This document shows, one piece after another, positions 3,306 through 21,573 of a stretch of 32,000 bases of DNA. The translations under genes were made by a program, and so were the position numbers. The stretch is taken from NCBI RefSeq assembly GCF_000175255.2, contig NC_017262.1:960001-992000 (forward strand). Reading direction: 5' to 3'. Every line of letters starts with the position of its first letter. Position 1 is the stretch's first letter. The notes under the pieces are model-generated. The model was not told the origin of the DNA and made no database searches. It was given only the letters and a program-made list of their open reading frames with translations. The DNA comes from Zymomonas mobilis subsp. mobilis ATCC 10988. Lineage in GTDB: Bacteria > Pseudomonadota > Alphaproteobacteria > Sphingomonadales > Sphingomonadaceae.

Positions 3306-3974
3306 TTGTTGGGGAGAAAAAGGCTGTCCGATTTCGGGAATGCAAGGCTGGCGTGTCATGACGTGAGTTGTTTGAGAGGCGACCGCTTACTGTTTACCCA
3401 TTTGTCTTTTGAAGTGAAGGCTGGGGAGGCCGTTTTAATAACGGGGGCAAATGGTATTGGTAAAAGCAGCCTTTTGCGTCTGTTGGCGGGTTTTCTGAAA
3501 CCTTTTTCGGGTCATGTTAAAAAATGGGGTCGGGTGGCTTTTGCGGATGAGGCTTTGGCAATGGATCGGCATTTGCCTTTAGAAAAAGCCTTGGCTTATT
3601 GGGCGGCTTTAGATGGTGTTTTGGGCGCTGAAAAAGAAGCAATGGCGGTGATGGCTCTTGATAGATTGGCGGATTCACCTGTCCGTTTGCTCTCCACTGG
3701 GCAGCGTAAAAGAGCTGTGTTGGCGCGTTTGTTGGCAAGCCAGGCTGCTATCTGGTTGTTGGATGAACCGGCAAACGGGCTTGATGCGGCTTCTGTTAGG
3801 GCTTTGATCGAAATGATAGAGCACCATCGCCAAAAGGGCGGGATTATTTTGGCTGTTAGTCATCAAGGGCTTGATATGGCTGATTATAAAACCTTGTCTT
3901 TAGAAAATTTCGTAGCGAATTCTGGCCAGTCATCAGGTTTCTTTGACCTTTTGGATGAAAGTCATTTCTCTTGA
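3306..3974 (+). CDS. ccmA: Heme exporter ATP-binding protein CcmA (cytochrome c maturation ABC ATPase)
   Basis: Walker A is GANGIGKSS, the ABC signature is LSTGQRKR, and Walker B is IWLLDEP. The size is ~220 aa and the gene overlaps a ccmB-like permease. The start is uncertain: TTG at 3306 or 3309, with no in-frame ATG upstream of the conserved N-terminus. Confidence 0.8.
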   Translation: MLGRKRLSDFGNARLACHDVSCLRGDRLLFTHLSFEVKAGEAVLITGANGIGKSSLLRLLAGFLKPFSGHVKKWGRVAFADEALAMDRHLPLEKALAYWAALDGVLGAEKEAMAVMALDRLADSPVRLLSTGQRKRAVLARLLASQAAIWLLDEPANGLDAASVRALIEMIEHHRQKGGIILAVSHQGLDMADYKTLSLENFVANSGQSSGFFDLLDESHFS

Positions 3975-4618
3975 TCCGGCTTGTTTTATTAATTCGTCGG
4001 GATTGCTCAATTTTGATCGGGGCAGGGGTATTTCTACCTGTCTTGTTTTTTTTATTGGTTGCCGTTCTATACCCTTTCGCGGTGGGCAGTGATCCCATAA
4101 TTTTATCGCGTACTGGTAGCGGAATATTATGGGTTGCCGCTCTGTTAGCTTCTTTGTTACCCATTGACCGTTTGATTATTCCCGATGTCGAAAATGGCTT
4201 TTTCGATCATTATGCGGTGCGCGGGATTAGCGAAGAATGGATAGCTGTGGCGCGTATTATCGCCCATTGGGTGAGTTTTGCTGTCCCTTTAATGGTGGCG
4301 TTGTTACCCGCCTCGGCTTTGCTATCTTTGGATTGGTCTGTTTTCTGGAAATTGGAAGCCGGATTTTTATTGGCTACTCCTGGACTGGCCTCTTTGGGGG
4401 TTATGATTGCCGCTTTGACGGCAAGGATAAAGTCCGGAAGTGGGTTGGCTGCTTTACTTTTATTGCCTTTGGCCGTGCCGCTCCTCATCTTTGGCGCGGG
4501 GGCTGTTGATGGTCATCAGCCTGGGGCCTTCCTATTATTGGCGGCTTGTTCGTTGTTTTTGCTTGCTGTCGCGCCTTTTGTCATCGGTGCCGCTTTGCGC
4601 ATCGGACAAGATGGGTAA
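3971..4618 (+). CDS. ccmB: Heme exporter permease CcmB
   Basis: The TTG start overlaps the ccmA stop (tTTGA). The product is a 215-aa polytopic membrane protein with a CcmB-like N-terminus (LIRRDCSIL, LFFLLVAVLYPFAVG, GILWVAALLASLLPIDRL). Its position directly after ccmA supports the call. Confidence 0.8.
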   Translation: MIRLVLLIRRDCSILIGAGVFLPVLFFLLVAVLYPFAVGSDPIILSRTGSGILWVAALLASLLPIDRLIIPDVENGFFDHYAVRGISEEWIAVARIIAHWVSFAVPLMVALLPASALLSLDWSVFWKLEAGFLLATPGLASLGVMIAALTARIKSGSGLAALLLLPLAVPLLIFGAGAVDGHQPGAFLLLAACSLFLLAVAPFVIGAALRIGQDG

Positions 4619-5522
4619 AAGGCTTACTGTATCGATTTAAGGCAGGCTTTGTGGTTGATAAAATCGAGATAGAGGTCAGCTTTTTCGAGGATGGATGCTC
4701 CGATAGTCATCGTAGGACGCCGTCTAGTATCTTTGAGGACTAATTTTTGTCTTTTTCTATAATTGATCCCATCAATAGATAAATCTGATTCCACGATATA
4801 GGCTGGATCAGTTATTTTATCTTTAGTAATGTCGGTGAATTCATCAATAATTTTCTTTTGTTTTTCAAATAATATTTGTTCTTCTGGCGTAAATTCAGAT
4901 TTGAACTGTAGTAAGTTAAAATCGGTGTTTTCTTCAGAAAGATCTATGGCAACTAGATCGGTTCTACCTTGCCATGTAATGGGGTATTTGAGTGCTTGGT
5001 AATCTCCTTCAAATGTACTTCCAAGATGAATGTCCTGTTGACAGTTACAGTTGATATTTTTGCCAAAGGTCATCTGCTGTTTATTTATTTTGATTTTACC
5101 CAGTTTTTGAAGAACCATCAGCCCCAAATAGGCTTTTTTTGTAGTAGTAAAGAGAACGGGAACGTTTTTTAAAACGGCTGTTCCGATTTTGAGTTCATCA
5201 ACAATACCGAGATCGCCACTAAAAATTTCAGCAGTCCCATTATCTGCATAGTTGATATGTCCAACAATATGGACATGGGGCGAATCTTTTAACTCTATGG
5301 GTAATTTACTAATCGCGGATTCCGTATCCAGAAGAAGAATCGTCTTTTTGCCATTTAAAGAGGCGTTAATATAAGGAATCTTCCAGGTTCTGTTCTTATT
5401 TATATCTTGATATTTTATCGGTAATGATTGTTTATGATCTATTCCGGTAACCGTAAAAGCGGGTATTAAAGAGGGAAATACAGTTAGACTTCCCATTTTT
5501 GTTGCTGAAAGGGAAAAATTTT

Positions 5523-6301
5523 CTAGGTTTTGTTGACAAAGGAAGGTAACCACAATTTTACGGCCGCGAGATGAAGGAAGGCGAGAAAAGATTTTCTGGT
5601 TTTGTCATAGCGTGTGGCAATGCGCCTGAACTGCTTTAGCTTATTAAACATCCGCTCAATACGATTACGATCTTTGTAGTGCTGGAGATTATAAGGAATA
5701 GGCTTTTTTCGATTGGAACGAGGCGGGATAACAGGAAGGATGCCTCGAAAAAGCAGTTTTTCGCGTAACCTATCGCTATCATATCCTTTATCAGCGAGAA
5801 AACAGTGGGGTGTTGTGACAGGGATATCTATCAAGCTATCAGCGCCAGAATAATCAGAGACCTCACCACCGGTTAGTGCGAAAGCTAGAGGGCGGCCTTG
5901 ACCATCGGAACGGGCGTGGATCTTGCTCGTAAAGCCTCCGCGACTGCGACCAAAGCCTTCCTTATACGTCCCCCTTTTGCGCCAGCCGCTTGGCTGTGGG
6001 CGCGAATAATCGTACTATCTATCATATGTTGCCAGTCATCTGTCAGGCCAAGGTCAACGAGAGTTTCAAGAAGAGCGTCCCACACACCCTGTTCTGCCCA
6101 CCTACGAAACCGAACATAGATCGAATTCCATTTCCCATAACGTTCATGCATATCTCGCCACGGGCAGCCTGTTCGAAGCACATAAAGCATACCATTGAGA
6201 AATAACCGATTACTTTTGGCGGGACGCGCGCAGCGGCCTCGTTCGCTTGGAAGAAGACCCTGTATTATCTCCCACTCCGCGTCCGTCAGATCTCCTCGCA
6301 T
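5523..6301 (-). CDS. IS5-family DDE transposase (OrfA 138 aa plus an overlapping OrfB frame; probable -1 frameshift)
   Basis: OrfA contains LTDAEWEIIQGLLP and RTGCPWRDMHERYG. The OrfB frame reads GRSRGGFTSKIHARSDGQGRPLAFALTGGEVSD, then LADKGYDSDRLR, then YKDRNRIERMFNKLKQFRRIATRYDK. The frames overlap at A-AAA-GGG (complement of 5972-5978). The stop TAG (5523-5525) lies just outside the IS end. Confidence 0.85.
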
Positions 6302-6374
6302 CCTATCTACCCTACAAAACTTGTTCTCAAGTTATCTCTAAAAATCTTAAATTATACCCTTTGTCAACAGAACC
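5526..6374 (-). mobile_element. IS5-family insertion sequence (IS427-group-like), copy A, 849 bp
   Basis: The terminal inverted repeats are GGTTTTGTTGACAAAGG (5526-) and GGTTCTGTTGACAAAGG (complement of 6358-6374). A 2-bp TA duplication lies in a CTAG target (tcTA|IS|TAgt). The element differs from copy B at only the few positions I compared. Confidence 0.9.
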
Positions 6375-6884
6375 TAGTCCCTTGAATTTTCGGATGACAG
6401 GATAATAAGTATTGTTGATGTTGTTGAGTTTTTCACCCCAAGCGGGAAGATTACCTTCCAAAAAATAATTACCAGCAGAAATCTGGTCGCAGGTCATCAC
6501 CACATTATTAATCGGAGGAAGTAGAGTAGGCGTGTTTGGGTCTTGGAAGAAGGTTTTTTTACATATTGCTAATTGTCGATTGACCTCTTCATAATTGCCT
6601 TTGACGAGCAACGCTTCAATTTTTGTAAATTTTTTGACGGTATTTGTTGTTTCTGGCTCATTAGCAATCTTTTCAATAAGGAGACTGTCTCCTTCGAAAA
6701 GGGCATCTACAAGCCTTTTATTCCCAGGGTTGAGCTCTACACCCTTTTGTTGTTCTTCTGCTGTTGTATTCCTTAGAAATTCGATTAATCTTTCAGAAAT
6801 GAGAGGCTTGTCAGCTTTCAATGGCGGCAGGAAAAAGCTGTTTAGAAGAAGGGGGTAGAGAAGAAATCGATATTTTTTAGGCAT

Positions 6885-6938
6885 GATAGGCTTCCGATAA
6901 AACAAGTTGTGATGACGCTCTTCCCCCTTCTTTGATAC
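6885..6938 (-). repeat. Conserved 54-bp inter-unit spacer (unit 7 stop to unit 8 start)
   Basis: On the coding strand it reads GTATCAAAGAAGGGGGAAGAGCGTCATCACAACTTGTTTTATCGGAAGCCTATC followed by ATG. It has the same length and about 90 percent of the same bases as the five other spacers. Confidence 0.9.
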
Positions 6939-8362
6939 TTACTGCGGTATGGGCTGTGCGTCCGAGTTGTTAGGCTTGAGGCAGGCTTTGTGATTGATAA
7001 AGTCGAGATAGAGATCAGCTTTTTCGAGGATAGATAATCCGATGATTGTGGCTAATCGAGATCGACTATCTTCTATAACTATTTCTTTTTTTTGCCCATA
7101 ATCCATATTATCCACGAACAAATTGCCTTTATTTGAAATAAACTGAAAACTTCAATTCTTTGTTATTTGGGTCTGGTCTTTCTTCGAAAGATTGTTCTTT
7201 CTCTTGTGGCGTAAATTCTGACTTATAAGTTGTTAAATTATAAACGGTATCATCTTGAGTGAAGTCAACTACCACTAAACGCGTGTGCCCCTGCCATGTA
7301 ATTGGATATTGGACCGATTGGAAATCGCCCCCCAATGCGCTGCCAAGGTGAATATCTTGCTGACAGTTACAATTGATATCCTTGCCAAAGGTCATCTGCT
7401 GTTTATTTATTTTGATTTTACCTAGTTTTTGTAAAATCATGAGTCCCAGATAGGCCTGATTGACATTGGTAAAAAGGAAGGGAACGTTTTTTAAAACGGC
7501 TTTTTCGATTTTGATTTCATCGACAATGCCAATGTCACCACTAAAAAATTCAGAAGCTCCATTCTTTGCCCGATCGAGATGCCCGACGATATGAACATGG
7601 GGAGAATGACGCCATTCTTCTGGCAATTTGCCAATGGCGGCACTGGTTTCCAAAAAGAAAGGAATGTTCTTTCCGTTTAGGGATGCGGTTATGTGGGGAA
7701 CGTAGTTAGCACTCCGCCTATGTTCTTCGTCTATAGCAACATCAAATTGCAGTTGAATGCGTTGCTGGTGATCTATCCCAGTAACCTTGAAGGGGGGTAT
7801 CGAATTCGGAGAGACCGACAATCTACCCATTTCGGCATCCGTAAGAGAGAATTCTTCTAATCCTGAAATTTTTCGGATGGGTGGATAATAGACATTTCTA
7901 ACAAAATTAAGACTTTTACCCCAATCTTTCAGATTACCATCCAAAAAGTAATTACCGACCAATGTTTGTTTGCATATTATCCCTACGCCACTGATGGGTG
8001 GAAATGGGTTGGGGGCATCGGGTTTTTGAAAGAAAGTCTTATCACAGATATCAAGTAATTTATTGGCATTTTGATAATCACCTTTAATGCGAAACTTGTT
8101 TATTTCAGCATATTTTTGGACAAGGTGACTGTTGCTTAGATCTTTAGCGACTTTGTCAATAAGCAGGTCGTCTCCCTCAGATAACCCTTTTCGCATTTCA
8201 TTACCGCCTGATCGCAATTCGATACCGTTTTTTAAATCTTCAGGCGTTTTTTGCTTAAGAAGTTCAATCAGTTTTGGTGAAACAAGGGGCTTGTCCGCTT
8301 TTAATGGTGGCAGGAAAAAGCTGTTTAGAAGAAGGGGATAGAGCAAAAATCGGTATTTCTTA
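6939..8362 (-). pseudogene. Array unit 7, inactivated by an IS insertion after codon 2 and by a 1-nt frameshift near the 3' end
   Basis: The start codon and second codon remain at 9212-9218 on the far side of IS copy B (ATGCC-TA|IS|TA-AGAAATACCG). The body is colinear with units 4-6. The reading frame stops at 7129 (KFSVYFK*) and resumes in another frame (NLFVDNMDYGQKK through ADLYLDFINHKACLKPNNSDAQPIPQ, ending at 6939). The length without IS and TSD is 1429 nt, one more than the 1428 nt of intact units. Confidence 0.85.
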
Positions 8363-9211
8363 GGTTCTGTTGACAAAGGGTATAATTTAAGATTTTTAGA
8401 GATAACTTGAGAACAAGTTTTGTAGGGTAGATAGGATGCGAGGAGATCTGACGGACGCGGAGTGGGAGATAATACAGGGTCTTCTTCCAAGCGAACGAGG
8501 CCGCTGCGCGCGTCCCGCCAAAAGTAATCGGTTATTTCTCAATGGTATGCTTTATGTGCTTCGAACAGGCTGCCCGTGGCGAGATATGCATGAACGTTAT
8601 GGGAAATGGAATTCGGTCTATGTTCGGTTTCGTAGGTGGGCAGAACAGGGTGTGTGGGACGCTCTTCTTGAAACTCTCGTTGACCTTGGCCTGACAGATG
8701 ACTGGCAACATATGATAGATAGTACGATTATTCGCGCCCACAGCCAAGCGGCTGGCGCAAAAGGGGGACGTATAAGGAAGGCTTTGGTCGCAGTCGCGGA
8801 GGCTTTACGAGCAAGATCCACGCCCGTTCCGATGGTCAAGGCCGCCCTCTAGCTTTCGCACTAACCGGTGGTGAGGTCTCTGATTATTCTGGCGCTGATA
8901 GCTTGATAGATATCCCTGTCACAACACCCCACTGTTTTCTCGCTGATAAAGGATATGATAGCGATAGGTTACGCGAAAAACTGCTTTTTCGAGGCATTCT
9001 TCCTGTTATCCCGCCTCGTTCCAATCGAAAAAAGCCTATTCCTTATAATCTCCAGCACTACAAAGATCGTAATCGTATTGAGCGGATGTTTAATAAGCTA
9101 AAGCAGTTCAGGCGCATTGCCACACGCTATGACAAAACCAGAAAATCTTTTCTCGCCTTCCTTCATCTCGCGGCCGTAAAATTGTGGTTACCTTCCTTTG
9201 TCAACAAAACC
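8363..9211 (+). mobile_element. IS5-family insertion sequence, copy B, 849 bp, inverted relative to copy A
   Basis: It has the same inverted repeats as copy A. The TA duplication sits in a CTAG-like site (ttcTTA|IS|TAGgcatg). I noticed only two differences from copy A: I/V in WNS(I/V)YVRF and a silent atc/att change. Confidence 0.9.
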
Positions 9212-9214
9212 TAG
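8436..9214 (+). CDS. IS5-family DDE transposase (OrfA plus OrfB; probable -1 frameshift at A-AAA-GGG, 8759-8765)
   Basis: The frame arithmetic was checked. OrfA codons run gca-aaa-ggg. The OrfB frame, defined by the TAG at 9212-9214, starts codons at 8759, which is a -1 offset. OrfB carries the DDE-region motifs listed for copy A. Confidence 0.85.
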
Positions 9215-9272: not shown

Positions 9273-10700
9273 TTACTGCGGCATAGGCTGTGTGTCCGAA
9301 ATATTTGGTTTAAGACAGGCCTTATGATTGATGAAGTCGAGATAGAGGCTTGCTTTGTCTAGGATAGATGTACTTATAATTATTACTGGCTTGCGCCTAT
9401 TATCTTCTTCGACAAGTGCCTTTATTTTTCCATAGTTTATTCCATCAATAAATAAATTTTCGTTATTCAAATAACCGACAATTTTAATCATTTTTTTATT
9501 TGAATTTACATCTTCTTCGAAAGATTGTTTTTTTTCTTCAGCTGTAAATTGGAGCTTAAAGGTTAATAAGTTGAATATGGTATTATCTTGAGTAAAGTCG
9601 ACGGCAACTAAATTAGTTTTGCCTTGCCAAGTAATCGGATATTTAAGGGCTTGGAAGTCGCCCGCTAACGCGCTGCCAAGGTGGATATCTTGTTGACAAT
9701 TGCAATTGATATCCTTGCCAAAGATCATCTGCTGTTTATCTATCTTGATTTTACCGAGCTTTTGTAAAATCATGAGTCCCAGATAGGCTTGGCTGACATT
9801 GGTGAAAAGGAAGGGAACGTTTTTTAAAACAGCCTTCCCAATTTTGAGCTCATCAACGATGCCGAGATCGCCGCTATAAAATTCAGATGCAGCATTGGTT
9901 GCTCTCTCAATATGTCCAACGATATGGACATGAGGGGAATGGCTCCATGCTTTGGGTAATTTGCCAATAGCTGCGCTGGTTTCCAAAAAGAAAGGAACTT
10001 CTTTCTCGTTTAGGGAGGCTATTACATAAGGGACATGTTCCGCATTACGCCTAAAGTTTTCTTTTATAGGAATTTGATACTGTAGTGGAATGCTTTGTTG
10101 GTACTCTATGTCTGTAATAGTAAAGGGTTGTATTGGGTTCGGGGAGACAGATAGTCCTCCCATCTTAACATCCGCAAGGGAGAATTGTTGTAATCCTGAG
10201 ATTTTTCGAACGGGTGGGTAATAGATATTTTTAATAAAATCGAGGCTTTTACCCCAATCTTTGAGATTACCGTCCAGAAAATAATTACCGGCTAAAATCT
10301 GTTTGCATACCATGCCTATGGCATTGATAGGCGGTAACGAAGCTGAGGTGTCTGGTTTTTGAAAGAAAGTCTTATCACAGATATCAAGTAATTTATTGGC
10401 GCTTTGATAGTCTCCTTTGATGCGGAGCTTGTTTATTTCAGCATATTGGCTGGCAAGATTATTGCTTTCCAGCGCATTGATGGCTTTGTCGATGAGAAGG
10501 CTGTCGCCCTCCAATACCCCTTCTTGTATTTCATCGCCACCCAGTCGAATTTCAATACCGTTTTTTAACGTTTCAGGTGTTTGTTGCTTGAGAAGTTCGA
10601 TGAGCCTTGGAGAGATAAGAGGCTTGTCAGCTTTCAATGGCGGTAGGCAAAAGCTGTTTAGAAGAAGGGCATAGAGAAGAAATCGGTATTTCTTAGACAT
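9273..10700 (-). CDS. Array unit 6, intact, 475 aa: secreted TPR-like plus double retropepsin-like family protein
   Basis: The signal peptide is MSKKYRFLLYALLLNSFCLPPLKA|DKP. The helical N-domain contains KGDYQSANKLLDICDKTFF and LAGNYFLDGNLKDWGKSL. The lobe-1-like segment reads ASLNEKEVPFFLETSAAIGKLP, then LKIGKAVLKNVPFLFTN and AYLGLMILQKLGKIKIDKQQMIF. The lobe-2-like segment reads YPITWQGKTNLVAVDFTQD, then LFIDGINYG and SILDKASLYLDFINHKACL. Confidence 0.85.
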   Translation of the reverse strand: MSKKYRFLLYALLLNSFCLPPLKADKPLISPRLIELLKQQTPETLKNGIEIRLGGDEIQEGVLEGDSLLIDKAINALESNNLASQYAEINKLRIKGDYQSANKLLDICDKTFFQKPDTSASLPPINAIGMVCKQILAGNYFLDGNLKDWGKSLDFIKNIYYPPVRKISGLQQFSLADVKMGGLSVSPNPIQPFTITDIEYQQSIPLQYQIPIKENFRRNAEHVPYVIASLNEKEVPFFLETSAAIGKLPKAWSHSPHVHIVGHIERATNAASEFYSGDLGIVDELKIGKAVLKNVPFLFTNVSQAYLGLMILQKLGKIKIDKQQMIFGKDINCNCQQDIHLGSALAGDFQALKYPITWQGKTNLVAVDFTQDNTIFNLLTFKLQFTAEEKKQSFEEDVNSNKKMIKIVGYLNNENLFIDGINYGKIKALVEEDNRRKPVIIISTSILDKASLYLDFINHKACLKPNISDTQPMPQ

Positions 10701-10754
10701 GACAGGCTTTCAATAAAACAAGTTGTGATAACGCGCTTCCCCCTTCTTTGATAT
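10701..10754 (-). repeat. Conserved 54-bp inter-unit spacer (unit 5 stop to unit 6 start)
   Basis: On the plus strand it reads gacaggctttcaataaaacaagttgtgataacgcgcttcccccttctttgatat. Confidence 0.9.
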
Positions 10755-12182
10755 TTACTGCGATATAGGCGTAGCATCCGAATTGTTCGGCTTGAGGCAG
10801 GCCTTGTGATTGATGAAGTCGAGATAGAGAGTGACTTTGTTGAGGATAAACAAGCCCATAATGGTAGCTGGATCTTGGATAGTATCTTTTGCAATAAACT
10901 CTTCTCTTACTCCATAATTGATCCCATCAATGGATAAGTCAGATTTTACAATGCGCCCTTGACTTAGAACAGTTTTGTTATTTTCTTTTGTGGGGAATTG
11001 GAATGTGGTTTCTTGTTCTTCTTTTGTGAAATCTGGTTTAAATGTCCATAGCGTAAAGTCGCTATTATCCTCAGTAAGGTCAATTGCGACTAGACTGGTT
11101 TTACCTTGCCACGTAATTGGGTATTTGAGGGTTTGGAAATCGCCCCCCAATGCGCTGCCAAGATGGATATCTTGCTGACAATTACAATTGATATCCTTGC
11201 CAAAGGTCATTTGCTGTTTATCTATTTTGATTTTACCTAATTTTTGTAAAATCATGAGCCCCAGATAGGCTTGGCTGACATCGGTAAAAAGGAAGGGAAC
11301 GTTCTTTAAAACAGCTTTTCCAATTTTGAGCTCATCAACGATGCCGAGATCGCCACTAAAAAATTCAGATGCAGCATTGGTTGATCTATCGAGATGTCCG
11401 ATAATATGGACATGAGGGGAATGACTCCATGCTTTGGGTAGTTTTCCAATAGCGGCACCGGTTTCTAAAAAGAAAGGCACCTCTTTCCCATTCAACGAAA
11501 CCATTGCGGAAGGAACATTTTCAGCAAAACGCCGATGATCTTCATGTATCGGAATTTTATATTGTAGTGGAATGCTTTGCTGGTGATCTATGTCTGTAAT
11601 GGTGAATGGGGGTATAGAATCCGGAGAAACGGACAACCTCCCCATTTCAATATCTGTAAGCGAGAACTGCTCTAATCCTGAAATTTTTCGGATGGGGGGA
11701 TAATAGACATTTCTAACAAAATGAAGAATTTTAGCCCAATCTTTCAGATTACCATCTAAGAAGTAATTACCTGCTAAAATTTGTTGGCATGTCATACCTA
11801 CGCCACTGATGGGTGGAAGTAAGTCGGGATCATAGGGTTTTTGAAAAAAAGTTTTACCGCAGATATCCAGCAGTTTATTGGCGTTTTGATAGTCGCCTTT
11901 GACGCGTAATTTATCTATTTTAGCATATTGGCTGACGAGATTATTGCCTTTTAGTGCATTGGCGGCTTTGTCGATGAGTAGGTCATCTCCCTCTAATACT
12001 CCCCTTTGCATTTCTTCGTCACCCGGTCGAATTTCAATACCATTTTTTAACGTTTCAGGTGTTTGTTGCTTGAGAAGTTCGATCAATTTTGGAGAAACGA
12101 GAGGCTTGTCAGCTTTTAATTCTGACAGAAGGACGCTGTTTAGAAGAAGGGGGTAGAGAAGAAATCGGTATTTCTTAGGCAT
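10755..12182 (-). CDS. Array unit 5, intact, 475 aa: same family
   Basis: It begins MPKKYRFLLYPLLLNSVLLSELKA|DKP. Lobe 1 reads VSLNGKEVPFFLETGAAIGKLP, with the Glu codon at 11463-11465. Lobe 2 reads VAIDLTED, with the Asp codon at 11079-11081. The C-terminus is TLYLDFINHKACLKPNNSDATPISQ. Confidence 0.85.
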   Translation of the reverse strand: MPKKYRFLLYPLLLNSVLLSELKADKPLVSPKLIELLKQQTPETLKNGIEIRPGDEEMQRGVLEGDDLLIDKAANALKGNNLVSQYAKIDKLRVKGDYQNANKLLDICGKTFFQKPYDPDLLPPISGVGMTCQQILAGNYFLDGNLKDWAKILHFVRNVYYPPIRKISGLEQFSLTDIEMGRLSVSPDSIPPFTITDIDHQQSIPLQYKIPIHEDHRRFAENVPSAMVSLNGKEVPFFLETGAAIGKLPKAWSHSPHVHIIGHLDRSTNAASEFFSGDLGIVDELKIGKAVLKNVPFLFTDVSQAYLGLMILQKLGKIKIDKQQMTFGKDINCNCQQDIHLGSALGGDFQTLKYPITWQGKTSLVAIDLTEDNSDFTLWTFKPDFTKEEQETTFQFPTKENNKTVLSQGRIVKSDLSIDGINYGVREEFIAKDTIQDPATIMGLFILNKVTLYLDFINHKACLKPNNSDATPISQ

Positions 12183-12236
12183 GACAGGCTTTCGATAAAA
12201 CGAGTTGTGATGACGCGCTTCCCCCTTCTCTGATAT
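12183..12236 (-). repeat. Conserved 54-bp inter-unit spacer (unit 4 stop to unit 5 start)
   Basis: On the plus strand it reads gacaggctttcgataaaacgagttgtgatgacgcgcttcccccttctctgatat. Confidence 0.9.
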
Positions 12237-13664
12237 TTACTGTGGCATAGGCTGTGTGTCCGATTCATCCGGCATGAGACAGGCCTTGTGATTGATGAAG
12301 TCGAGATAGAGGCTGCCTTTGTCTAGGACAAACGCGCCTATAATCGTTGAAGGATTACGTATCGTATCTTTTATGACTAATTCTTTCTTCTTACCATAAT
12401 CAATCCCGTCGATAGATAAGTTGGACTCTGTGAAATAAGCAGGGTTTTTTATTTTAGTGCCGTCAACATTATTTGTAACATCAAAAAAATGGTTCTGTTG
12501 GTTCTTTAAAAATTTATCTTTGAAGGTGAGTATATCATAATCAATATTATTTTGAGTTAAATCAATTGCAGCAAAATTACGTTTATTTTTCCAATAAAAT
12601 GGATATTTTAATACTTGATGATCCCCTTTAAAGGTGATTCCAAAATGAACATCTTGTTGACAGATACAATTAACGTCTTTGCCAAAAATCATTTTCTGTT
12701 TATCTATTTTAATTTTTCCTAGCTTTTGTAAAATCATGAGTCCCAGATAGGCCTGATTGACATTGGTAAAAAGGAAGGGAACGTTCTTTAGCGTGGCATT
12801 TCCTATTTTTAATTCTTCGACAATACCGAGCTCGCCGCTATAATTTTCAGAAGCGGCATTATCTGCGTTATTAATATGCCCGATGAGGTGGACATTGGAC
12901 GCATGGCTAAATTTAGTTGGTAATTTGCCAATAGCGGCACCAGTTTCTAGAAAGAAGGGAATATCTTCTTTGTTTAATGAGGCAATTATAGACGGCAGTT
13001 TTTCCGCATTCCGCCTATAAATTTCCTCTATCGGAATTTGAAACTGCAACGGAACTGATTGTTGTTGCTCTATTCCTGTAACGGTAAAGGGAGGGATAGA
13101 ATCTGGAGAAATTGTCAAATTCCCCATCTTTGTTACAGCAAGAGAAAATTTTTCAAGTCCTTTAAATTTTTGGATAGCTGGGTAGTAGACATTTTCAATA
13201 AGGTTGAGTTCTATGCCCCAGTTTTTAATATCTCCCTCTAAAAAATAATTCCCTATAAGCATTTGACTGCAAGTCAATAATATACCGTTAATAGGTGATA
13301 ATAGATCCTGTGCATTTTTGTCTTGAAAGAAATTTTTATTGCATATTTCCAGTTGTCTATTGGCTTCTTGAAAAGCACCTTTAGATTGATAGACTTCAAT
13401 CTCAGCAAAATTCTGAACGATATTCGTGCTTTCTTTCGAAGTAGCAATTTTTTGAATTAAGGATGTATCTCCTTCGAATAAGGCTTGTTGAAGCTCTTCG
13501 CCACTAGGACGTAATTCTATGCCTTCTTGAAGCATTTCTGGTTTATATTGCCTGAGAATCTCGATCAATTTTGGAGAGACAAGGGGCTTGTCAGCTTTTA
13601 ATTCTGGCAGAAGAAAACTGTTTAGAAGAAGGGGATAGAGAAGAAATCGGTATTTCTTAGGCAT
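12237..13664 (-). CDS. Array unit 4, intact, 475 aa: the most divergent full-length member
   Basis: It has the same architecture and exactly the same length as units 5 and 6, despite many substitutions. It begins MPKKYRFLLYPLLLNSFLLPELKA|DKP. It contains FFLETGAAIGKLPTKFSHASNVHLIGH, AYLGLMILQKLGKIKIDKQKMIF and AAIDLTQNN, and ends SLYLDFINHKACLMPDESDTQPMPQ. Confidence 0.85.
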   Translation of the reverse strand: MPKKYRFLLYPLLLNSFLLPELKADKPLVSPKLIEILRQYKPEMLQEGIELRPSGEELQQALFEGDTSLIQKIATSKESTNIVQNFAEIEVYQSKGAFQEANRQLEICNKNFFQDKNAQDLLSPINGILLTCSQMLIGNYFLEGDIKNWGIELNLIENVYYPAIQKFKGLEKFSLAVTKMGNLTISPDSIPPFTVTGIEQQQSVPLQFQIPIEEIYRRNAEKLPSIIASLNKEDIPFFLETGAAIGKLPTKFSHASNVHLIGHINNADNAASENYSGELGIVEELKIGNATLKNVPFLFTNVNQAYLGLMILQKLGKIKIDKQKMIFGKDVNCICQQDVHFGITFKGDHQVLKYPFYWKNKRNFAAIDLTQNNIDYDILTFKDKFLKNQQNHFFDVTNNVDGTKIKNPAYFTESNLSIDGIDYGKKKELVIKDTIRNPSTIIGAFVLDKGSLYLDFINHKACLMPDESDTQPMPQ

Positions 13665-13718
13665 GACAGGCTTTCGATAAAATGAGTTGTGATGACGCTC
13701 TTCCTCCTTCTTTGATAT
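13665..13718 (-). repeat. Conserved 54-bp inter-unit spacer (unit 3 remnant stop to unit 4 start)
   Basis: On the plus strand it reads gacaggctttcgataaaatgagttgtgatgacgctcttcctccttctttgatat. Confidence 0.9.
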
Positions 13719-14037
13719 TTACTGCGGTATGGGCTGTTCGTCCGAATTGTTCGGCTTGAGGCAGGCTTTGTGATTGATGAAGTCGAGATAGAGGTCAGCT
13801 TTTTCGAGGATGGATACCCCCATTGATCGAAACGGACGATGAACACTATCCTTTTTAAATAATTCTTTTGTTTTTCCATAATTGATACCATCAATTATGA
13901 GATTAACTTCTTTTTGGTAAATAGATTCCTCCTTTGACTTTGTATTTGGTAAATTTGTAGTAATTTCTCTAGATTTTTTTTCTTCTTCTGGCGTAAAATT
14001 ATGTTGGGAAATAATAATACTGACATCGTCGAGACTA
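13719..14037 (-). pseudogene. Array unit 3, a 3' remnant of ~106 codons; the rest is missing at the IS C junction
   Basis: It reads SLDDVSIIISQHNFTPEEEKKS, then LIIDGINYGKTKELFKKD, then SILEKADLYLDFINHKACLKPNNSDEQPIPQ. This aligns to about residue 370 onward of intact units. The 131-aa track ORF (13719-14114) borrows its N-terminus from IS sequence. Confidence 0.8.
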
Positions 14038-14884
14038 GGCTCAGGACTCATTCTTTGAGATAGAAGATGAAACTTGCTGCGATATGGATTGCTGACATGA
14101 ATGTGTGAGCGCACCGGTCGTATCGTGTTGCGACACGCCGCCAGTCTTTGAGCTTTGCGAACATATTTTCGATGAGGTGACGCTTTTTATACAGATGCCA
14201 GTCGTAAGGCGGCTTTGATTTCCGGTTCTTCTTCGGCGGAATACAGGCGGTGATATTCCGGTCTGCGAGAGACTGTCTGATTTTATTACTGTCGTATCCC
14301 CGGTCCCCGAGAATTTCTTGTGTTTCTTCCGGCAGATTTGCCAGCAGAACATCCGCGCCTTTGAAGTCACTGACCTGACCTGCGGTCAGATGCAGCCGGA
14401 CAGGGCGGCCCTGACTATCGCATACAGCGTGAAGCTTTGAGTTCAGTCCGCCTTTCGTGCGTCCGATATGGCGGGGAAAAGCCCCTTTTTGAGCAGGGAG
14501 GCCGCTGTCCGGTGTGCTTTCAGATGTGTTGCATCGATCATCAGACGCTTCGAACGGCCTGCCTGCTCCGTCAGGGCGACGAAGATCCGGTCAAAGACAC
14601 CCAGGCGGCTCCACCGGATAAACCGGTTGTATAAAGTCTTGTGCGGGCCATACGCTTTCGGGGCGTCTTTCCACTGAAGGCCGTTGCGGATCACGTAAAC
14701 GATCCCGCTCAGGACACGACGGTCATCGACACGCGGCACACCATGCGCCAGTGGAAAAAACGGCTTAATCCGTTCCATCTGGTGCTCAGACAGCAAAAAC
14801 ACGTCACTCACAGCTTCACCTCCATCGGTAAACCTGTGAATCACAACAGCCCGCTCAACTCAAGAAATTAACAGGTCCTGAGCC
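14038..14884 (-). mobile_element. Second IS5-family element (IS C), 847 bp; a different sequence from copies A and B
   Basis: The terminal inverted repeat is GGCTCAGGAC (14038-14047 and complement of 14875-14884). The flanks are gagacTA|IS|TAggttt. It carries OrfA/OrfB transposase frames. Confidence 0.85.
14048..14844 (-). CDS. IS5-family DDE transposase of IS C (OrfA 133 aa plus a -1 frame OrfB)
   Basis: OrfA contains LSEHQMERIKPFFP, IRNGLQWKDAPKAYGPHKTLYNRFIRWSRLGVF and IDATHLKAHRTAASLLKKG. My hand translation of the -1 frame from the A-run at 14482-14490 gives GAFPRHIGRTKGGLNSKLHAVCDSQGRPVRLHLTAGQVSD, then LGDRGYDSNKIRQ, then YKKRHLIENMFAKLKDWRRVATRYDR, ending at TGA (14048-14050). Confidence 0.8.
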
Positions 14885-16277
14885 TAGGTTTAAGACAGGC
14901 CTTGTGATTGATGAAGTCGAGATAGAGGCTGCCTTTGTCTAGGATCGACACGCCTATAACTTTAGCCGGGATATGTAATTCGTCTTTTTCTACAGATTTT
15001 AGTCTTTTGCCGTAGTCGATGCCATCAATGGAAAGATTACCATCCGTTAAATAAATAGAAGAAATTATTTTCTTTCCATTTATTTCGCGATCCATTTCAA
15101 AAGATTGTTTTTCCTCTTCGGGGGTGAAGTCAGGTTGGAAGACCATAAAACTAAGATGGGCATCAGTGAGTCTAAGATTAATGGCAGCCATCTCGGTCTT
15201 TCCTTGCCATGTGATTTGATATCTTAAAGCATGAAAACGGCCGTCAAATATGCTGCCAAGTTGGATGTCTTTCTGGCAGTGACAATCAATATCTTTTCCG
15301 AAAGTGAAATATTGCCGATCTATTTTTATTTTGCCTAATTTTTGAAGAACCATCAGGCTAAGGGACGCTTCATCTGTATTTGTAAACAGGAACGGGACAT
15401 TTTTTAGAATCGCCGTCCCGATTTTTAGCTCATCAACAATACCAAGATCGCCATTATAGGCTTCGCCACGTCCATTGGTCGCTATTTCAATATGTCCGAC
15501 GATATGGACGTGAGGCGAATGGCTTAAGGCTTTGGGTAAGAAACTAATTGCGGTATCTGTTCCTAAGAAAAATGAGAAATCGGTTCCGTTTAAAGATGCG
15601 GTTAAATAAGGGACATTCCAAGTAATACTTTTATTGCCTTCTTGAGTAAATTTTTGGGATTGTAGCGGCAGTGTTTGCTGCTGATCTATTCCGGTAACAG
15701 TGAAGGGGGGGATCTCACTGGGGGGAACTGAAAGGTTGCCCATTTTAATATCGAAAAGAGAAAATTGCTCTAATCCTGCAAATTTTCGGATGGGAGGGTA
15801 GTAAGTATTTTTGATGTCATCAATTTTTTTGCCCCAAGCAGCAAGATTGCCTTCAAGAAAATAATTTCCCGCCAAGAGCTGATCACAGATCATGGCACCC
15901 AGATTTATAGGCGAAAGATGTATCCCGCTGCCCTCCATAAAATAGGTTTTATGGCAAATCTTGAGCTGTCTATCCGCTTCTTTGAAGTCGCCTTTAGTTC
16001 TTAGTAGATCTGTGTTTATAAATTTCTTTTCAAAGTTGGTGCGTTTCGGATCATCGATCATTTTTTGGAGATGAAGGCTATCTCCTTCGTAAAGGGCTAA
16101 AGTACTTTCATCGCCACCAGGGGCGACCTTTAGCCCTTCCTTTAAAGTTTGAGGGCTTTGCTGCTTTAGAAAGTCAACCAATCTGGAAGAGGGAAGGCTC
16201 TTTGTTGCTTTTAATGGTGGCAGGAGAACGCTGTTTAGAAGAAGGGGGTAGAGAAGAGATCGGTATTTTTTGAACAT
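14868..16277 (-). CDS. Array unit 2: a near-copy of unit 1 with a family-type signal peptide; its 3' end is replaced by IS C sequence
   Basis: It begins MFKKYRSLLYPLLLNSVLLPPLKA|TKSLPSS. The start is taken at ATG 16277 by homology, whereas the track ORF starts 7 codons upstream. The interior is almost identical to unit 1. The C-terminus reads FINHKACLKP-RLRTC*, with the last 5 codons and the stop coming from inside IS C (end 14884) instead of NNSDATPIPQ. Confidence 0.7.
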   Translation of the reverse strand: MFKKYRSLLYPLLLNSVLLPPLKATKSLPSSRLVDFLKQQSPQTLKEGLKVAPGGDESTLALYEGDSLHLQKMIDDPKRTNFEKKFINTDLLRTKGDFKEADRQLKICHKTYFMEGSGIHLSPINLGAMICDQLLAGNYFLEGNLAAWGKKIDDIKNTYYPPIRKFAGLEQFSLFDIKMGNLSVPPSEIPPFTVTGIDQQQTLPLQSQKFTQEGNKSITWNVPYLTASLNGTDFSFFLGTDTAISFLPKALSHSPHVHIVGHIEIATNGRGEAYNGDLGIVDELKIGTAILKNVPFLFTNTDEASLSLMVLQKLGKIKIDRQYFTFGKDIDCHCQKDIQLGSIFDGRFHALRYQITWQGKTEMAAINLRLTDAHLSFMVFQPDFTPEEEKQSFEMDREINGKKIISSIYLTDGNLSIDGIDYGKRLKSVEKDELHIPAKVIGVSILDKGSLYLDFINHKACLKPRLRTC

Positions 16278-16331
16278 AAAAGGCTTTCGATAAAACAAGT
16301 TGTGATGACGCTCTTCCCCCTTCTTTGATAT
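16278..16331 (-). repeat. Conserved 54-bp inter-unit spacer (unit 1 stop to unit 2 start)
   Basis: On the plus strand it reads aaaaggctttcgataaaacaagttgtgatgacgctcttcccccttctttgatat. Confidence 0.9.
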
Positions 16332-17756
16332 TTACTGCGGTATAGGTGTAGCGTCCGAATTGTTCGGCTTGAGGCAGGCTTTGTGATTGATGAAGTCGAG
16401 ATAGAGGTCAGCTTTTTCAAGAATTGTAATTGTCATGACTTTAGAAAATATGCGTAGTTTATCTTTTTGTACAGATTTTTGTCTTTTGCCGTAGTCAATG
16501 CCATCAATGGAAAGATTGCCATCTTTTAAATAAATAGAAGCGGTTACTTTCGTTCCGTCAATTTCTTTACTAATTTCAAAAGATTGTTTTTCTTCTTCAG
16601 GGGTAAAATCAGGTTGGAAGAGCATAAAGCTAAAACGGGCATCGCTCTGGCTAAGATCAATAGCCGCCATCTCGGTCTTTCCTTGCCATGTGATCGGATA
16701 TCTTAGGGCATAAAAACGGCCGTCAAATATGCTGCCAAGTTGGATGTCTTTCTGACAGTGACAGTCAATATCTTTTCCGAAAGTGAAATGTTGCCGATCT
16801 ATTTTTATTTTGCCTAATTTTTGAAGAACCATCAGACCAAGAGAAGCTTCATCCGTATTTGTAAACAGGAACGGGACATTTTTTAAAACCGTCGTCCCGA
16901 TTTTTAGCTCATCAACAATACCAAGATCGCCGTTATAGGCTTCGCCACGTCCATTGGTCGCTATTTCAATATGTCCGACGATATGGACGTGAGGCGAATG
17001 GCTTAAGGCTTTGGGTAAGAAACTAATTGCGGTATCTGTTCCTAAGAAAAATGAGAAATCGGTTCCGTTTAAAGATGCGGTTAAATAAGGGACATTCCAA
17101 GTACTGCGCCTATAGCCTTCTTGGGTAAGTTTCTGAGATTGTAGAGGCAGTGTTTGCTGCTGATCTATTCCGGTAACGGTGAAGGGGGGTATCTCACTGG
17201 GGGGAACTGAAAGGTTGCCCATTTTAATATCGAAAAGAGAAAATTGCTCTAATCCTGCAAATTTTCGGATCGGAGGGTAGTAAGTATTTTTGATGTCATC
17301 AATTTTTTTACCCCATGCAGCAAGATTGCCTTCGAGAAAATAATTTCCCGCCAAGAGCTGATCACAGATCATGGCACCCAGATTTATAGGCGAAAGATGT
17401 ATCCCGCTGCCCTCCATGAAATAGGTTTTATGGCAAATCTCGAGCTGCCTATCCGCTTCTTTGAAGTCGCCTTTGGTTCTTAGTAAGTCTGTATTTATAA
17501 ATTTTTTTTCAAAGCTGGTGCGCTTGGGATCATCGATCATTTTTTGGAGATGAAGGCTATCTCCTTCGTAAAGGGCTAAGGTGCTTTCATCGCCACCAGG
17601 GGCGACCTTTAGCCCTTCCTTTAAAGTTTGAGGGCTTTGCTGTTTTAGAAAGTCAACCAGTTTGGAAGAGGGAAGGCTCTCCTCAGCTTTGACTTTAGAA
17701 AAGGCTAAAAGTTCAGAAAAAAGAAATAGAGTAAGAAATAGATATTTTTTTAGCAT
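16332..17756 (-). CDS. Array unit 1 (first unit), intact, 474 aa, with a unique signal peptide
   Basis: The preferred start is ATG 17756 (MLKKYLFLTLFLFSELLAFSKVKA|EE), which gives a classic n-h-c signal peptide. The track ORF extends 14 codons further to 17798. The lobe-1 position reads FFLGTDTAISFLP and lobe 2 reads AAIDLSQSD. The C-terminus is ADLYLDFINHKACLKPNNSDATPIPQ. Confidence 0.85.
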   Translation of the reverse strand: MLKKYLFLTLFLFSELLAFSKVKAEESLPSSKLVDFLKQQSPQTLKEGLKVAPGGDESTLALYEGDSLHLQKMIDDPKRTSFEKKFINTDLLRTKGDFKEADRQLEICHKTYFMEGSGIHLSPINLGAMICDQLLAGNYFLEGNLAAWGKKIDDIKNTYYPPIRKFAGLEQFSLFDIKMGNLSVPPSEIPPFTVTGIDQQQTLPLQSQKLTQEGYRRSTWNVPYLTASLNGTDFSFFLGTDTAISFLPKALSHSPHVHIVGHIEIATNGRGEAYNGDLGIVDELKIGTTVLKNVPFLFTNTDEASLGLMVLQKLGKIKIDRQHFTFGKDIDCHCQKDIQLGSIFDGRFYALRYPITWQGKTEMAAIDLSQSDARFSFMLFQPDFTPEEEKQSFEISKEIDGTKVTASIYLKDGNLSIDGIDYGKRQKSVQKDKLRIFSKVMTITILEKADLYLDFINHKACLKPNNSDATPIPQ

Positions 17757-17799
17757 AAATATTTCCGTTTTTAGAGCAATGAAGCATTCATGCTGCATT

Positions 17800-18216
17800 C
17801 TAGAAAGGTAAAGGTAAACCTATCCCTATTGTACCAGAAGTACCATTTGATGGACTATGGCTAATAGAAGTTGTTAATTGTCCCAAATTAGTTAGCGGAA
17901 TTTTATTCAATTGTAATGATCCTCCCACTCCGGGAGGAGATACCGAAGAATAATTGCCATAAATTTTAGCACCAAGATTATTATTTTTACACTCTAGTAT
18001 CGGTTTTATATTAAGAACATGATGATTAATTTCTCCGCCAATATCTAATGTACAGGCATTATCGTCATTATAGCGATTATCTAAGGGTTTATAACGATAG
18101 CGATCCGATGGATTTTGAGGCTGCGAATTTAAAAAATTTAATAGACTTTGTGCTAATATCGGTTTTTTATCAGAGATCATCAGATCTTTATTATTTTTTT
18201 GTGAATTGTTGTCCAA
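17800..18216 (-). CDS. Hypothetical 138-aa protein directly upstream of the array (Asn/Ser/Gly-rich, ends GTIGIGLPLPF)
   Basis: An open frame of 138 codons in very AT-rich DNA is unlikely to occur by chance. It has a TTG start and no recognisable signal peptide. The stop TAG (17800-17802) abuts unit 1. I recognise no family, so coding status is uncertain. Confidence 0.4.
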   Translation of the reverse strand: MDNNSQKNNKDLMISDKKPILAQSLLNFLNSQPQNPSDRYRYKPLDNRYNDDNACTLDIGGEINHHVLNIKPILECKNNNLGAKIYGNYSSVSPPGVGGSLQLNKIPLTNLGQLTTSISHSPSNGTSGTIGIGLPLPF

Positions 18217-18343: not shown

Positions 18344-20131
18344 TTGCCTTTTTCCTATTCTATTGAGATAGCCAATTTTGTGACTTGGATTTTTGCATTT
18401 CTGGCCGGATTTGTCGCGGCCTTGGGATTACAGCCTTATAATCTTTGGGGATGCAGTCTTGTGGCTGTGGCTGGATGGCTGGCCTTATTGCGACAAACCC
18501 AAAAGACTTGGCAGATTTTTGCCCTTAGTTGGCTTTTTGCTTTCGGTTTTTTCTGGTTAGGGCTGGACTGGATTGCGACTTCTTTTACCCATCAGGCTGC
18601 GATGCCGTCATGGTTAGGTTGGGTCGCGGTACCTTTATTATCCTGTTATTTGGCCTGTTATATTTCTCTTTTTACTTTGCCCCTTCGTTTCTTATGTCTT
18701 TCTTTCCGGCGAGGCGAAAAAAGAGTGGATTCTTTTCAGTCGTCTGATGGGATTGGGGATGGTGCGGATTCCGAGGATATCGATGCTATTCCTTCCCGTC
18801 TTTTTCCTGTTGAGAATGACGCGGCGGTAGCGCGTGAAGGGACGATGAAAAGCCGTTTTTTTGTTGGGTCTGCTGCTTTTTGGTCTGTGCCTGTTTTCAG
18901 TATATCTTTGTCGCAAATACCGCTTTGGCGTTTGACGCTGGCCTTGGCGGGATGTTTGACATGGGGCGAATGGATAAAATCATGGGTTTTTACTGGATTC
19001 CCGTGGAGCCCGTTAGGAGCAATCTGGCTGAATATCCTGCCCATAGCGCATATCGCCCGATGGATCGGGAGTTACGGCCTGTCGGCTCTTGTGGTTATTG
19101 CCGCCGGTATCGGATTATCTTGTTATGACGGAATCAAATTAGCCATAGAGAAAAGACAGGCGAGGCAGGCTATCCGGTCGCTCCTTCCTGCGTTTTGGAT
19201 GGCTTTACCTTTTTTAGGATGGGCGTTGGTCGATGGTCATGACATCCATTGGCAAAAATCAGAGCAGCCGCCTGCTCATGTGGTGATTGTCCAGCCGAAT
19301 ATCCCGCAGGATGAAAAATACGATCTCCGTTATAAATCTCGTCATGATGCTATTTTCAAGAAATTGTCAGGGAAGAGTGATCTCCATTATCCCCGCCTGA
19401 TTTTATGGCCAGAAGATGCGGTTCAAAGCTATCTTGAAGAAGAGCCTTTGGCACGGGCAGCTTTGAGCCGTTTATTGGGCAAAAATGATCTGTTGTTGAC
19501 GGGGGGCGATGCTTTGATCCCCGATAATTCCGGTCATATCGCTTCGGTTCGGAATAGTTTATTTGTCCTTGACGCCAAGGGCGATATTTTAGACCGCTAT
19601 GACAAAGCCCATCTGGTGCCTTTCGGGGAATATATGCCTTTTCGGAAATGGGCGGCCTATGTCGGATTAGGGCGGTTGGTCGCTGGTGATATAGAATTCA
19701 CCGAAGGGGCGCAGCCTGAAAGTCTTGATCTGGTGCCTTTTGGTCTGGTCGGGATTCAGATTTGCTATGAAATCGTTTTTTCCGGTCGAGTAGTTGATCG
19801 CGCCCATCGCCCCGATTTCATTTTCAATTTGTCCAATGATAGCTGGTTTGGTCGATCGGGCCCGCCCCAACATTTGGCACAAGCGCGATTGCGGGCGATT
19901 GAAGAGGGGCTGCCTATCGCGCGAGCCACTTCTACCGGTATTTCTGCGGTGATTGATGCAGAAGGGCGTATCCTGCAATTTTTGCCTGAAAATACCGAAG
20001 GACGGCTTTTAGCGGTGATGCCGAAAGCGTTGCAACCGACCTTTTTTGCCCGCTACGGCAACCTGATTAGTGTGCTTTTTGCCACGGCTCTGTTGCTCAT
20101 TGCCCTGTTTGGGCGTATTAAGTTACGCTAG
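18344..20131 (+). CDS. lnt: Apolipoprotein N-acyltransferase
   Basis: The N-terminus is polytopic and includes GFPWSPLG. The C-terminal carbon-nitrogen hydrolase domain shows VVIVQPNIPQDEKY, LILWPEDA, KAHLVPFGEYMPF, ICYEIVF and NLSNDSWFG. A final transmembrane segment follows. The start is TTG. Confidence 0.85.
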   Translation: MPFSYSIEIANFVTWIFAFLAGFVAALGLQPYNLWGCSLVAVAGWLALLRQTQKTWQIFALSWLFAFGFFWLGLDWIATSFTHQAAMPSWLGWVAVPLLSCYLACYISLFTLPLRFLCLSFRRGEKRVDSFQSSDGIGDGADSEDIDAIPSRLFPVENDAAVAREGTMKSRFFVGSAAFWSVPVFSISLSQIPLWRLTLALAGCLTWGEWIKSWVFTGFPWSPLGAIWLNILPIAHIARWIGSYGLSALVVIAAGIGLSCYDGIKLAIEKRQARQAIRSLLPAFWMALPFLGWALVDGHDIHWQKSEQPPAHVVIVQPNIPQDEKYDLRYKSRHDAIFKKLSGKSDLHYPRLILWPEDAVQSYLEEEPLARAALSRLLGKNDLLLTGGDALIPDNSGHIASVRNSLFVLDAKGDILDRYDKAHLVPFGEYMPFRKWAAYVGLGRLVAGDIEFTEGAQPESLDLVPFGLVGIQICYEIVFSGRVVDRAHRPDFIFNLSNDSWFGRSGPPQHLAQARLRAIEEGLPIARATSTGISAVIDAEGRILQFLPENTEGRLLAVMPKALQPTFFARYGNLISVLFATALLLIALFGRIKLR

Positions 20132-21568: not shown

Positions 21569-21573
21569 GCAGG

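Follow-up and report, generated by a model that had tools for sequence, protein, structure and literature searches.

Pepsin-fold pseudoenzymes are known in animals and plants. In Bla g 2, TAXI-I, the pregnancy-associated glycoproteins, and histo-aspartic protease (HAP), the catalytic D-T/S-G motif has been lost or altered while the fold was kept for binding, and the first three are pseudoproteases that act as binders or inhibitors. Here, we describe a head-to-tail array of eight paralogs on the minus strand of a 32,000-nucleotide stretch of the Zymomonas mobilis subsp. mobilis ATCC 10988 genome (hereafter the window), located between ccmB and lnt, in which each intact unit encodes two retropepsin-like lobes. 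Single-domain retropepsins, such as Rickettsia APRc (5C9B), the secreted peptidases of Pseudomonas aeruginosa (PMC12239564), and members of TIGR02281, are homologous to each of these lobes, but they consist of one domain, are obligate homodimers, and carry D-T/S-G-A, whereas the array units are fused lobes from which the motif has been lost. Literature searches returned no bacterial, exported, eightfold tandem set of pepsin-fold pseudoenzymes. Based on the residues found at the catalytic positions and on the selection acting on the genes, we consider it fairly probable that the array proteins are exported, non-catalytic pseudoproteases that would serve as binding modules built on a protease fold.

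Results

Both catalytic motifs are lost across the array family

Searching 1.84 billion representative proteins exhaustively with a profile yielded 71 representative clusters of the broad family to which the array belongs, most of them 400–490 amino acids long and about half matching over both lobes. In a MAFFT alignment of 73 sequences (array units plus relatives), residues E240 and D368 of unit 5, which we use as the reference unit, share columns with the DTG of lobe 1 and the DTG or DSG of lobe 2 in these relatives. D-T/S-G is the rule outside the array: it is present in lobe 1 of 54 of the 65 non-array representatives, in lobe 2 of 55, and in both lobes of 51. A direct comparison of the two lobes with hhalign (94.8% probability, E 5.3e-8, 99 columns) places FFLETGAA over VAIDLTED, i.e. 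ETG with DLT, and the consensus DTG with DTG. The broad-family profile also matches the Bacteroides fragilis structure 9IY9 in the PDB (9IY9_A, E 7.7e-24), whose lobes 1 and 2 read FIFDTGAG and LHFDTGNS, respectively, as well as Rickettsia APRc (1e-9), DDI1, and HIV-1 protease over their DTG regions; for tethered HIV-1 protease dimers, both halves are matched, and the profile aligns with them over each of its lobe regions. Only this broad profile reached 9IY9 and the retropepsins, as PDB searches with a single sequence or a Zymomonas-only profile gave no match, and a homolog search by word index, run with the broad alignment, gave three proteins only and added nothing. Finally, lobe 1 of unit 5 scores 41.3 bits against PF13650 (Asp_protease_2; curated cut-off 24.3, E 2.6e-10), with units 1, 4, and 6 at 25–28 bits and the unit 8 fragment, at 22.4 bits, under the cut-off. 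E240 and D368 thus occupy the catalytic Asp positions of the family, an assignment on which four independent grounds agree: Pfam, the broad-family columns, the PDB profile matches, and the lobe-to-lobe alignment. A preliminary description of this DNA, made from the sequence alone, had taken these positions for the psi-loop catalytic sites, and the comparison of a predicted structure with known ones (see below) bears it out as well.

Among 32 aligned Zymomonas array-family sequences, D-T/S-G does not occur once in either lobe. Position 240 is Glu in 20 sequences, Gly in nine, Asp in two, and Ala in one, while position 242 is Asp in 13, Gly and Ser in eight each, Glu in two, and Cys in one; T241, A244, and I245 are invariant or nearly so. 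In lobe 2, position 368 is Asp in 26 sequences, Asn in five, and Ser in one, followed by Leu, Phe, or Pro at position 369 and Thr, Ser, Arg, or Asn at position 370. The motif glycine of lobe 1 is accordingly missing from 24 of the 32 sequences, and both the Thr/Ser and the Gly of lobe 2 are missing from all units. The claim of the preliminary description that the catalytic sites of both lobes are non-canonical and differ between paralogs therefore holds, its codon positions for E240 and D368 of unit 5 are exact, and the motifs that it read in each unit were recovered unchanged (Table 1).

The paralogs are old and maintained by selection

The ratio of nonsynonymous to synonymous divergence (dN/dS) between orthologous units of two strains ranges from 0.18 to 0.36, with a value of 0.28 for unit 2 and its ortholog in strain ZM4. 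Between paralog types, synonymous divergence is saturated (proportion of synonymous sites that differ, pS, 0.53–0.77) and dN/dS is 0.13–0.21; no segment tested had a dN/dS above 1. The paralogs are old and under purifying selection, and two strains retain intact units with G240 or A240 and with N368 or S368. Because selection maintains these proteins while their would-be catalytic residues differ, their function would need no catalysis, and this is the main argument for the pseudoprotease reading.

The preliminary description had further proposed that the scaffold around the active site is far better conserved than the would-be catalytic residue. This is correct for the LKNVPFLFT block (pS 0.72, proportion of nonsynonymous sites that differ, pN, 0.01) and for the LGLMILQKLGKIKID block (pS 0.60, pN 0.06), and the inter-lobe linker behaves similarly (pS 0.91, pN 0.10). 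Since the core blocks combine a pS of 0.6–0.9 with a pN of 0.01–0.1, the constraint acts at the protein level, and gene conversion was rejected as the cause of their conservation because synonymous divergence is saturated there. The conservation of LYLDFINHKACL, on the other hand, is partly due to homogenization at the DNA level, as this motif lies inside a junction block of ~200 nucleotides that is 90–97% identical between units and comprises the last ~75 nucleotides of one unit, a 54-nucleotide spacer, and the first ~60 nucleotides of the next. Synonymous divergence is reduced within this block (pS 0.39 and 0.34), and for the gene ends and spacers, gene conversion is accepted as a partial cause. 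What did not survive is the idea that variation is concentrated exactly at the active site: among mature positions, 240 ranks only at the 65th percentile of entropy and 242 at the 86th, mean entropy is higher in lobe 2 (1.26) than in lobe 1 (0.72), and residues 386–445 vary most.

These data also bear on whether the array is decaying junk, with its active-site variation reflecting neutral drift in pseudogenes. Three of the eight units in the window are indeed interrupted, either by IS5 elements or by a frameshift. However, strain ZM4 has eight intact units, dN/dS remains at 0.13–0.36 even with saturated dS between paralogs, the core blocks are constrained as described above, and the genes are transcribed and co-regulated: the “ZMO0263-0270 gene cluster” of ZM4 was reported as co-regulated (PMC6853872), and ethanol induces ZMO0265 (PMC3495753; PMC7064620). 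This explanation is already contradicted, and we give it almost no weight.

Residual or atypical catalysis

Several observations weigh against the pseudoprotease reading. All 32 sequences have an acidic residue at position 240 or 242, G240 or A240 is found only together with D242, and D368 is retained in 26 sequences; a carboxylate seems to be wanted in the cleft, which is compatible with residual or atypical catalysis. The retained carboxylate may reflect ligand binding, and is equally what an atypical carboxylate pair would need. In addition, only one of five AlphaFold2 models of unit 5 was confident, with the other four scoring 52–57, which bears on the predicted cleft geometry; the three broken units in this strain imply that single units are dispensable; and HAP is active with one Asp replaced.

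The same acidic residues, along with the nearly invariant T241 and the strong conservation of the fold and of the cleft-forming blocks, would fit a set of active acid proteases in which E240 or D242 pairs with D368 in an acidic periplasm or medium. Zymomonas does live at low pH, and HAP illustrates that such an enzyme can work with a replaced Asp. Yet we regard this alternative as quite unlikely, given the replacement of the lobe-2 Thr/Ser and Gly in every unit and of the lobe-1 Gly in three quarters of the sequences, and the existence of intact, selected units with N368 or S368 (the unit 2 type, P0012, P0017, and P0004) or without an acid at position 240. Active families keep their catalytic residues fixed among paralogs under purifying selection, and a change from Asp to Glu at the catalytic site is reported to be inactivating in retropepsins. 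A catalytic variant of clan AA, using Glu240 or the Asp two residues further on (G/A-T-D) together with the lobe-2 Asp and dispensing with the “fireman’s grip”, appears very unlikely; if it were true, each paralog would be an acid-active protease with its own chemistry or specificity. The preliminary description had left the choice between a pseudoprotease and an atypical Glu/Asp dyad. The selected units with G or A at position 240 and N or S at position 368, and the absence of the lobe-2 Thr and Gly, favor the pseudoprotease; since the carboxylate is kept, this support is partial.

Domain architecture and predicted fold

Unit 5, like each array protein, begins with a putative Sec-type signal peptide, read by eye from the sequence (Table 1), and, based on this peptide, on Cys pairs conserved in the family, and on the name “Exported protein” given to 9IY9, the array proteins are probably exported. 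The mature chain continues with an all-helical domain followed by the two lobes. A Pfam scan of the Zymomonas N-terminal domain alone gave no match, and in P0087 and P0111, two distant members of the family, Pfam recognizes TPR repeats in the corresponding place; the N-terminal domain of unit 5 probably derives from such repeats. It includes an AGN..L.G....W motif, and across 68 sequences, residues C330, C456, and W144 (numbering of the relative P0097), which correspond to C335, C462, and W149 of unit 5, are at least 90% conserved. One of these cysteines follows lobe 1 and the other is at the C-terminus, and they form a probable disulfide.

The best AlphaFold2 model of unit 5 (predicted local distance difference test score, pLDDT, 73.6; predicted template-modeling score, pTM, 0.74) displays a helical N-terminal domain followed by two beta lobes. 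Foldseek retrieved 9IY9 as the top match for this model (E 1.2e-15, template-modeling (TM) scores 0.59/0.65, 451 columns), followed by bilobal pepsins in which both lobes were aligned, namely Sap5, plasmepsins, renin, pepsin, HAP, and Bla g 2, with an E of about 1e-8 and TM scores of about 0.35/0.47. This likeness to the pepsin family is in fold only, as PF00026 (pepsin family A1) gave no match at E up to 1. Similarly, unit 5 reaches only 18.1 bits against TIGR02281 (“clan AA DTGA”; cut-off 57.95), and unit 1 has no match to it.

The parent family (P0029-P0096 and 9IY9) has the same overall organization, with a helical or TPR-like N-terminal domain and two retropepsin-like lobes in one exported chain of ~420–480 amino acids, of which Pfam usually recognizes lobe 1 only. 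Named members come from Acetobacteraceae, Stenotrophomonas, and Bacteroides (9IY9), and most representatives are metagenomic.

Origin of the array and parallel motif losses

All 26 close protein clusters of unit 5 are from Zymomonas. Among relatives outside the array, the closest (E 3.7e-75) is encoded by a single-copy gene in Z. mobilis subsp. pomaceae (P0097/P0027; AEI37885.1, WP_013934281.1); it resembles the array units in length and domain order and is 28–31% identical to them, but differs in having DTG in lobe 1, DSG in lobe 2, and a single-gene location at an unrelated locus (Table 1). In a neighbor-joining tree, P0097 is sister to the array, and the next group out, sister to both, is an Acetobacteraceae clade of Gluconobacter, Asaia, Swingsia, Lichenicola, and Acetobacter. 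Homologs in Gluconobacter and Asaia, where tandem arrays were looked for, are single genes. The pomaceae chromosome is the longest contig in none of the 26 array-family clusters, and this subspecies may thus carry the canonical gene without the array.

Because the change to D-L/F-T/S in lobe 2 is common to all array units, the lobe-2 motif was lost once, before amplification. In lobe 1, the codons form a series of single-base steps from GAT (Asp, as in the unit 8 type) to GAA (Glu) to GGA (Gly). The Acetobacteraceae clade (P0031, P0033, P0036, P0038, P0040, P0045, and P0053) includes several independent losses of D-T/S-G in one or both lobes. Gluconobacter, for instance, has GTA/DTG, Asaia has GTA/GTE and NTA/ATG, and STD/TSG also occurs; certain losses (GTA, NTA) have removed every carboxylate. 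These motif-losing genes are single-copy and conserved across species, and such losses are rare in the rest of the family. The repeated losses suggest that a non-catalytic life is common in this subfamily.

The canonical pomaceae paralog raises another possibility. By analogy with TAXI-type pepsin-fold inhibitors, the units could be non-catalytic regulators, inhibitors, or decoys of a protease with the same fold, or of a foreign yeast or plant enzyme. The evidence for non-catalysis applies here as it does to the pseudoprotease reading, a DTG/DSG paralog is encoded elsewhere in a related genome, the nearest relatives belong to Acetobacteraceae (Gluconobacter, Asaia, Swingsia, and Acetobacter) that share a sugar-rich acidic niche, and the paralogs differ most in the lobe-2 hairpins. 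We nevertheless judge this role unlikely: a query with P0097 gave no confirmed locus among species-representative genomes, the distribution of the pomaceae chromosome across the array clusters leaves co-occurrence of this paralog and the array unsupported, and dN/dS stays at or below 1 in every segment tested.

Under the pseudoprotease reading, we propose the following scenario. The ancestor would have belonged to a bacterial family with a pair of fused retropepsin-like domains behind a helical, TPR-like N-terminal domain, yielding a pepsin-like cleft with one D-T/S-G aspartate per lobe. In the array lineage, the lobe-2 motif would have been destroyed once (D-T/S-G to D-L/F-T/S), after which the lobe-1 Asp would have been free of constraint and could have drifted from Asp to Glu to Gly by single-base changes. 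The fold and cleft would have been kept as a binding site for peptides or proteins, acting in the periplasm or extracellularly, possibly with a contribution of the helical N-terminal domain, and the differences between paralogs in cleft-lining residues and lobe-2 hairpins could constitute a small repertoire of specificities.

Organization of the locus

Five units are intact in the window (units 1, 2, 4, 5, and 6; 475–488 amino acids) and three are broken (Table 1). The same locus in ZM4 (ZMO0263-0270) comprises eight intact units of 467–493 amino acids with 54-nucleotide spacers and no insertion sequence (IS), and hence the present strain is losing array members. Unit 1 is 94.5% identical to ZM4 unit 3 (tblastn), unit 5 is 96% identical to the ZM4 protein named ZMO0267 by NCBI (P0001), and unit 6 is 98.5% identical to ZM4 unit 5. 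For the broken units, tblastn matched residues 358–477 of P0012 to the unit 3 remnant (14084-13722, 88% identity), with a remnant of an IS5-family transposase located where the N-terminal three quarters of this unit belong. Unit 7 is cut off from its upstream sequence by IS copy A, and ZM4 unit 6 used as query splits over two frames there. The two parts of unit 8 match residues 1–170 and 168–465 of ZM4 unit 7 at 97–98% identity. IS5 copies A and B are 99.8% identical, each with DUF4096 and DDE open reading frames (ORFs).

Table 1 Coordinates of the array units, their parts, and neighboring features (window positions, except in the last row)
Feature	Position	Strand	Description
ccmA/ccmB	3306-4618		One flank of the array
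Unit 8, split	4624..6905	-	Psi-loops DTESA / DLSEE; N-part 6375-6905, C-part 4624-5532
IS5-family element copy B	5523..6376	-	Inside unit 8 at about codon 169; Pfam PF13340 on ORF
Unit 7, broken	6939..8367	-	ETSAA / DFTQD; frameshift near codon 410 (7135-7148)
IS5-family element copy A, 854 bp	8361..9214	+	At 5' end of unit 7; DDE_Tnp_1
Unit 6, intact	9273..10700	-	ETSAA / DFTQD
Unit 5, intact	10755..12182	-	ETGAA / DLTED; PF13650 E 2.6e-10
Unit 5 predicted signal peptide, residues 1-25	12108..12182	-	MPKKYRFLLYPLLLNSVLLSELKA, cleaved before DKP; basic n-region, hydrophobic core, LKA cleavage-type site
Unit 5 N-terminal all-helical domain, residues ~27-190	11613..12104	-	Helices H31-165 in AlphaFold2 model
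Unit 5 lobe 1, retropepsin-like, residues ~222-332	11187..11519	-	PF13650 over 227-309; beta-strand pattern
Unit 5 lobe 1 psi-loop ETGAA	11451..11465	-	E240 (11463-11465, GAA) at catalytic Asp position; context PFFLETGAA
Unit 5 lobe 2, retropepsin-like, residues ~350-466	10785..11135	-	hhalign, Foldseek; Pfam blind to lobe 2
Unit 5 lobe 2 psi-loop DLTED	11067..11081	-	D368 (11079-11081, GAC) kept; Thr/Ser and Gly replaced; context LVAIDLTED
Unit 4, intact	12237..13664	-	ETGAA / DLTQN; PF13650 E 1.3e-5
Unit 3 remnant	13719..14084	-	C-terminal ~120 codons, P0012 type
IS5-family transposase remnant (DUF4096)	14443..14844	-	PF13340 E 1.5e-22; tblastn with P0012
Unit 2, intact	14868..16298	-	GTDTA / NLRLT; Asn replaces lobe-2 Asp
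Unit 1, intact	16332..17798	-	GTDTA / DLSQS; ORF, likely true start near 17756
Inter-unit spacer, 54 nt	10701-10754, 12183-12236, 13665-13718, 16299-16331, 6906-6938	-	Reads TAAATATCAAAGAAGGGGGAAGAGCGTCATCACAACTTGTTTTATCGAAAGCCTGTC-ATG
lnt, metK, rpoN	18344-23073		Other flank of the array
Canonical paralog of subsp. pomaceae	L004 10001-11386 (CP002865.1)		Between ABC-F ATPase gene and AdoHcyase gene

The inter-unit spacer is nearly identical at every junction in the two strains (86% mean column identity over 12 aligned junctions, with most columns invariant), although synonymous divergence of the coding regions is saturated. A structured RNA was considered for this spacer and rejected, since it matches no Rfam family beyond one sub-threshold chance match and folds worse than shuffled sequence (z +2.2). 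The junction block is either a hotspot of concerted evolution or recombination, or else an element without structure that acts in regulation or translation. No terminator was found above chance which, along with the unstructured spacers and the published co-regulation, suggests that the units are transcribed together.

The order of the units differs between the window and ZM4, and some family members in other strains look chimeric: P0013 resembles unit 4 as far as the LGLMILQKLGKIKI block and unit 7 beyond it, while P0004 resembles unit 5 and then unit 7. ZM4 unit 8 (L001 15938-17341) is a second copy of the unit 5 kind whose C-terminus differs. Recombination between units is thus indicated. 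On its upstream side, unit 1 is abutted by a 138-amino-acid ORF (17800-18216, minus strand) without Pfam or NCBIfam matches, whose counterpart in ZM4 was called as a 155-amino-acid gene overlapping the first unit; this ORF may be the leading gene in the array's transcription unit. Within the unit 4 coding sequence (13448-13482, minus strand), the Rfam model of the S4-Flavobacteria ribosomal leader matches below threshold (29.1 bits vs. a gathering threshold of 35.2, E 0.047), almost certainly by chance.

Discussion

Most members of the family are already labeled “retropepsin-like aspartic protease” or “aspartyl protease family protein” by NCBI, others being “hypothetical protein”, so the assignment of the fold is not new. 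Our literature searches, for their part, returned no account of the double motif loss, the two-lobe architecture, the eightfold array, or its origin, with the genes appearing in transcriptome lists only, and no paper on the parent family or on 9IY9. Assigning a role to the array would provide one for the stress-responsive “hypothetical proteins” ZMO0263-0270 of an industrial ethanol producer.

Among structurally described proteins, members of pepsin family A1 resemble the units, as judged from the Foldseek matches of the predicted model, in their bilobal fold with one psi-loop per lobe. They differ in that no sequence-level match links the two groups, and in that the units are bacterial and probably exported, carry an extra helical N-terminal domain, and form an eightfold tandem. 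The fusion of the two lobes seems to have arisen either separately from the A1 family or long before it, and the two-lobe bacterial fusion of the parent family may bear on how bilobal aspartic proteases arose from retropepsin-like ancestors.

The B. fragilis protein of 9IY9 (“Exported protein”/putative endopeptidase, released 2025) shares with the units its predicted export, its helical N-terminal domain, and its two retropepsin-like lobes, but has a canonical DTG in both lobes and is only ~15% identical to unit 5. The array, for its part, offers a natural active-site series on one scaffold, from the DTG/DSG of the sister gene to DTE, ETG, ETS, ETD, GTD, and ATD within the array. Together with the solved canonical structure of 9IY9, this series represents a tractable system for following the fate of a protease fold after catalysis is lost, and for asking if rescue by a Glu or a shifted Asp is possible.

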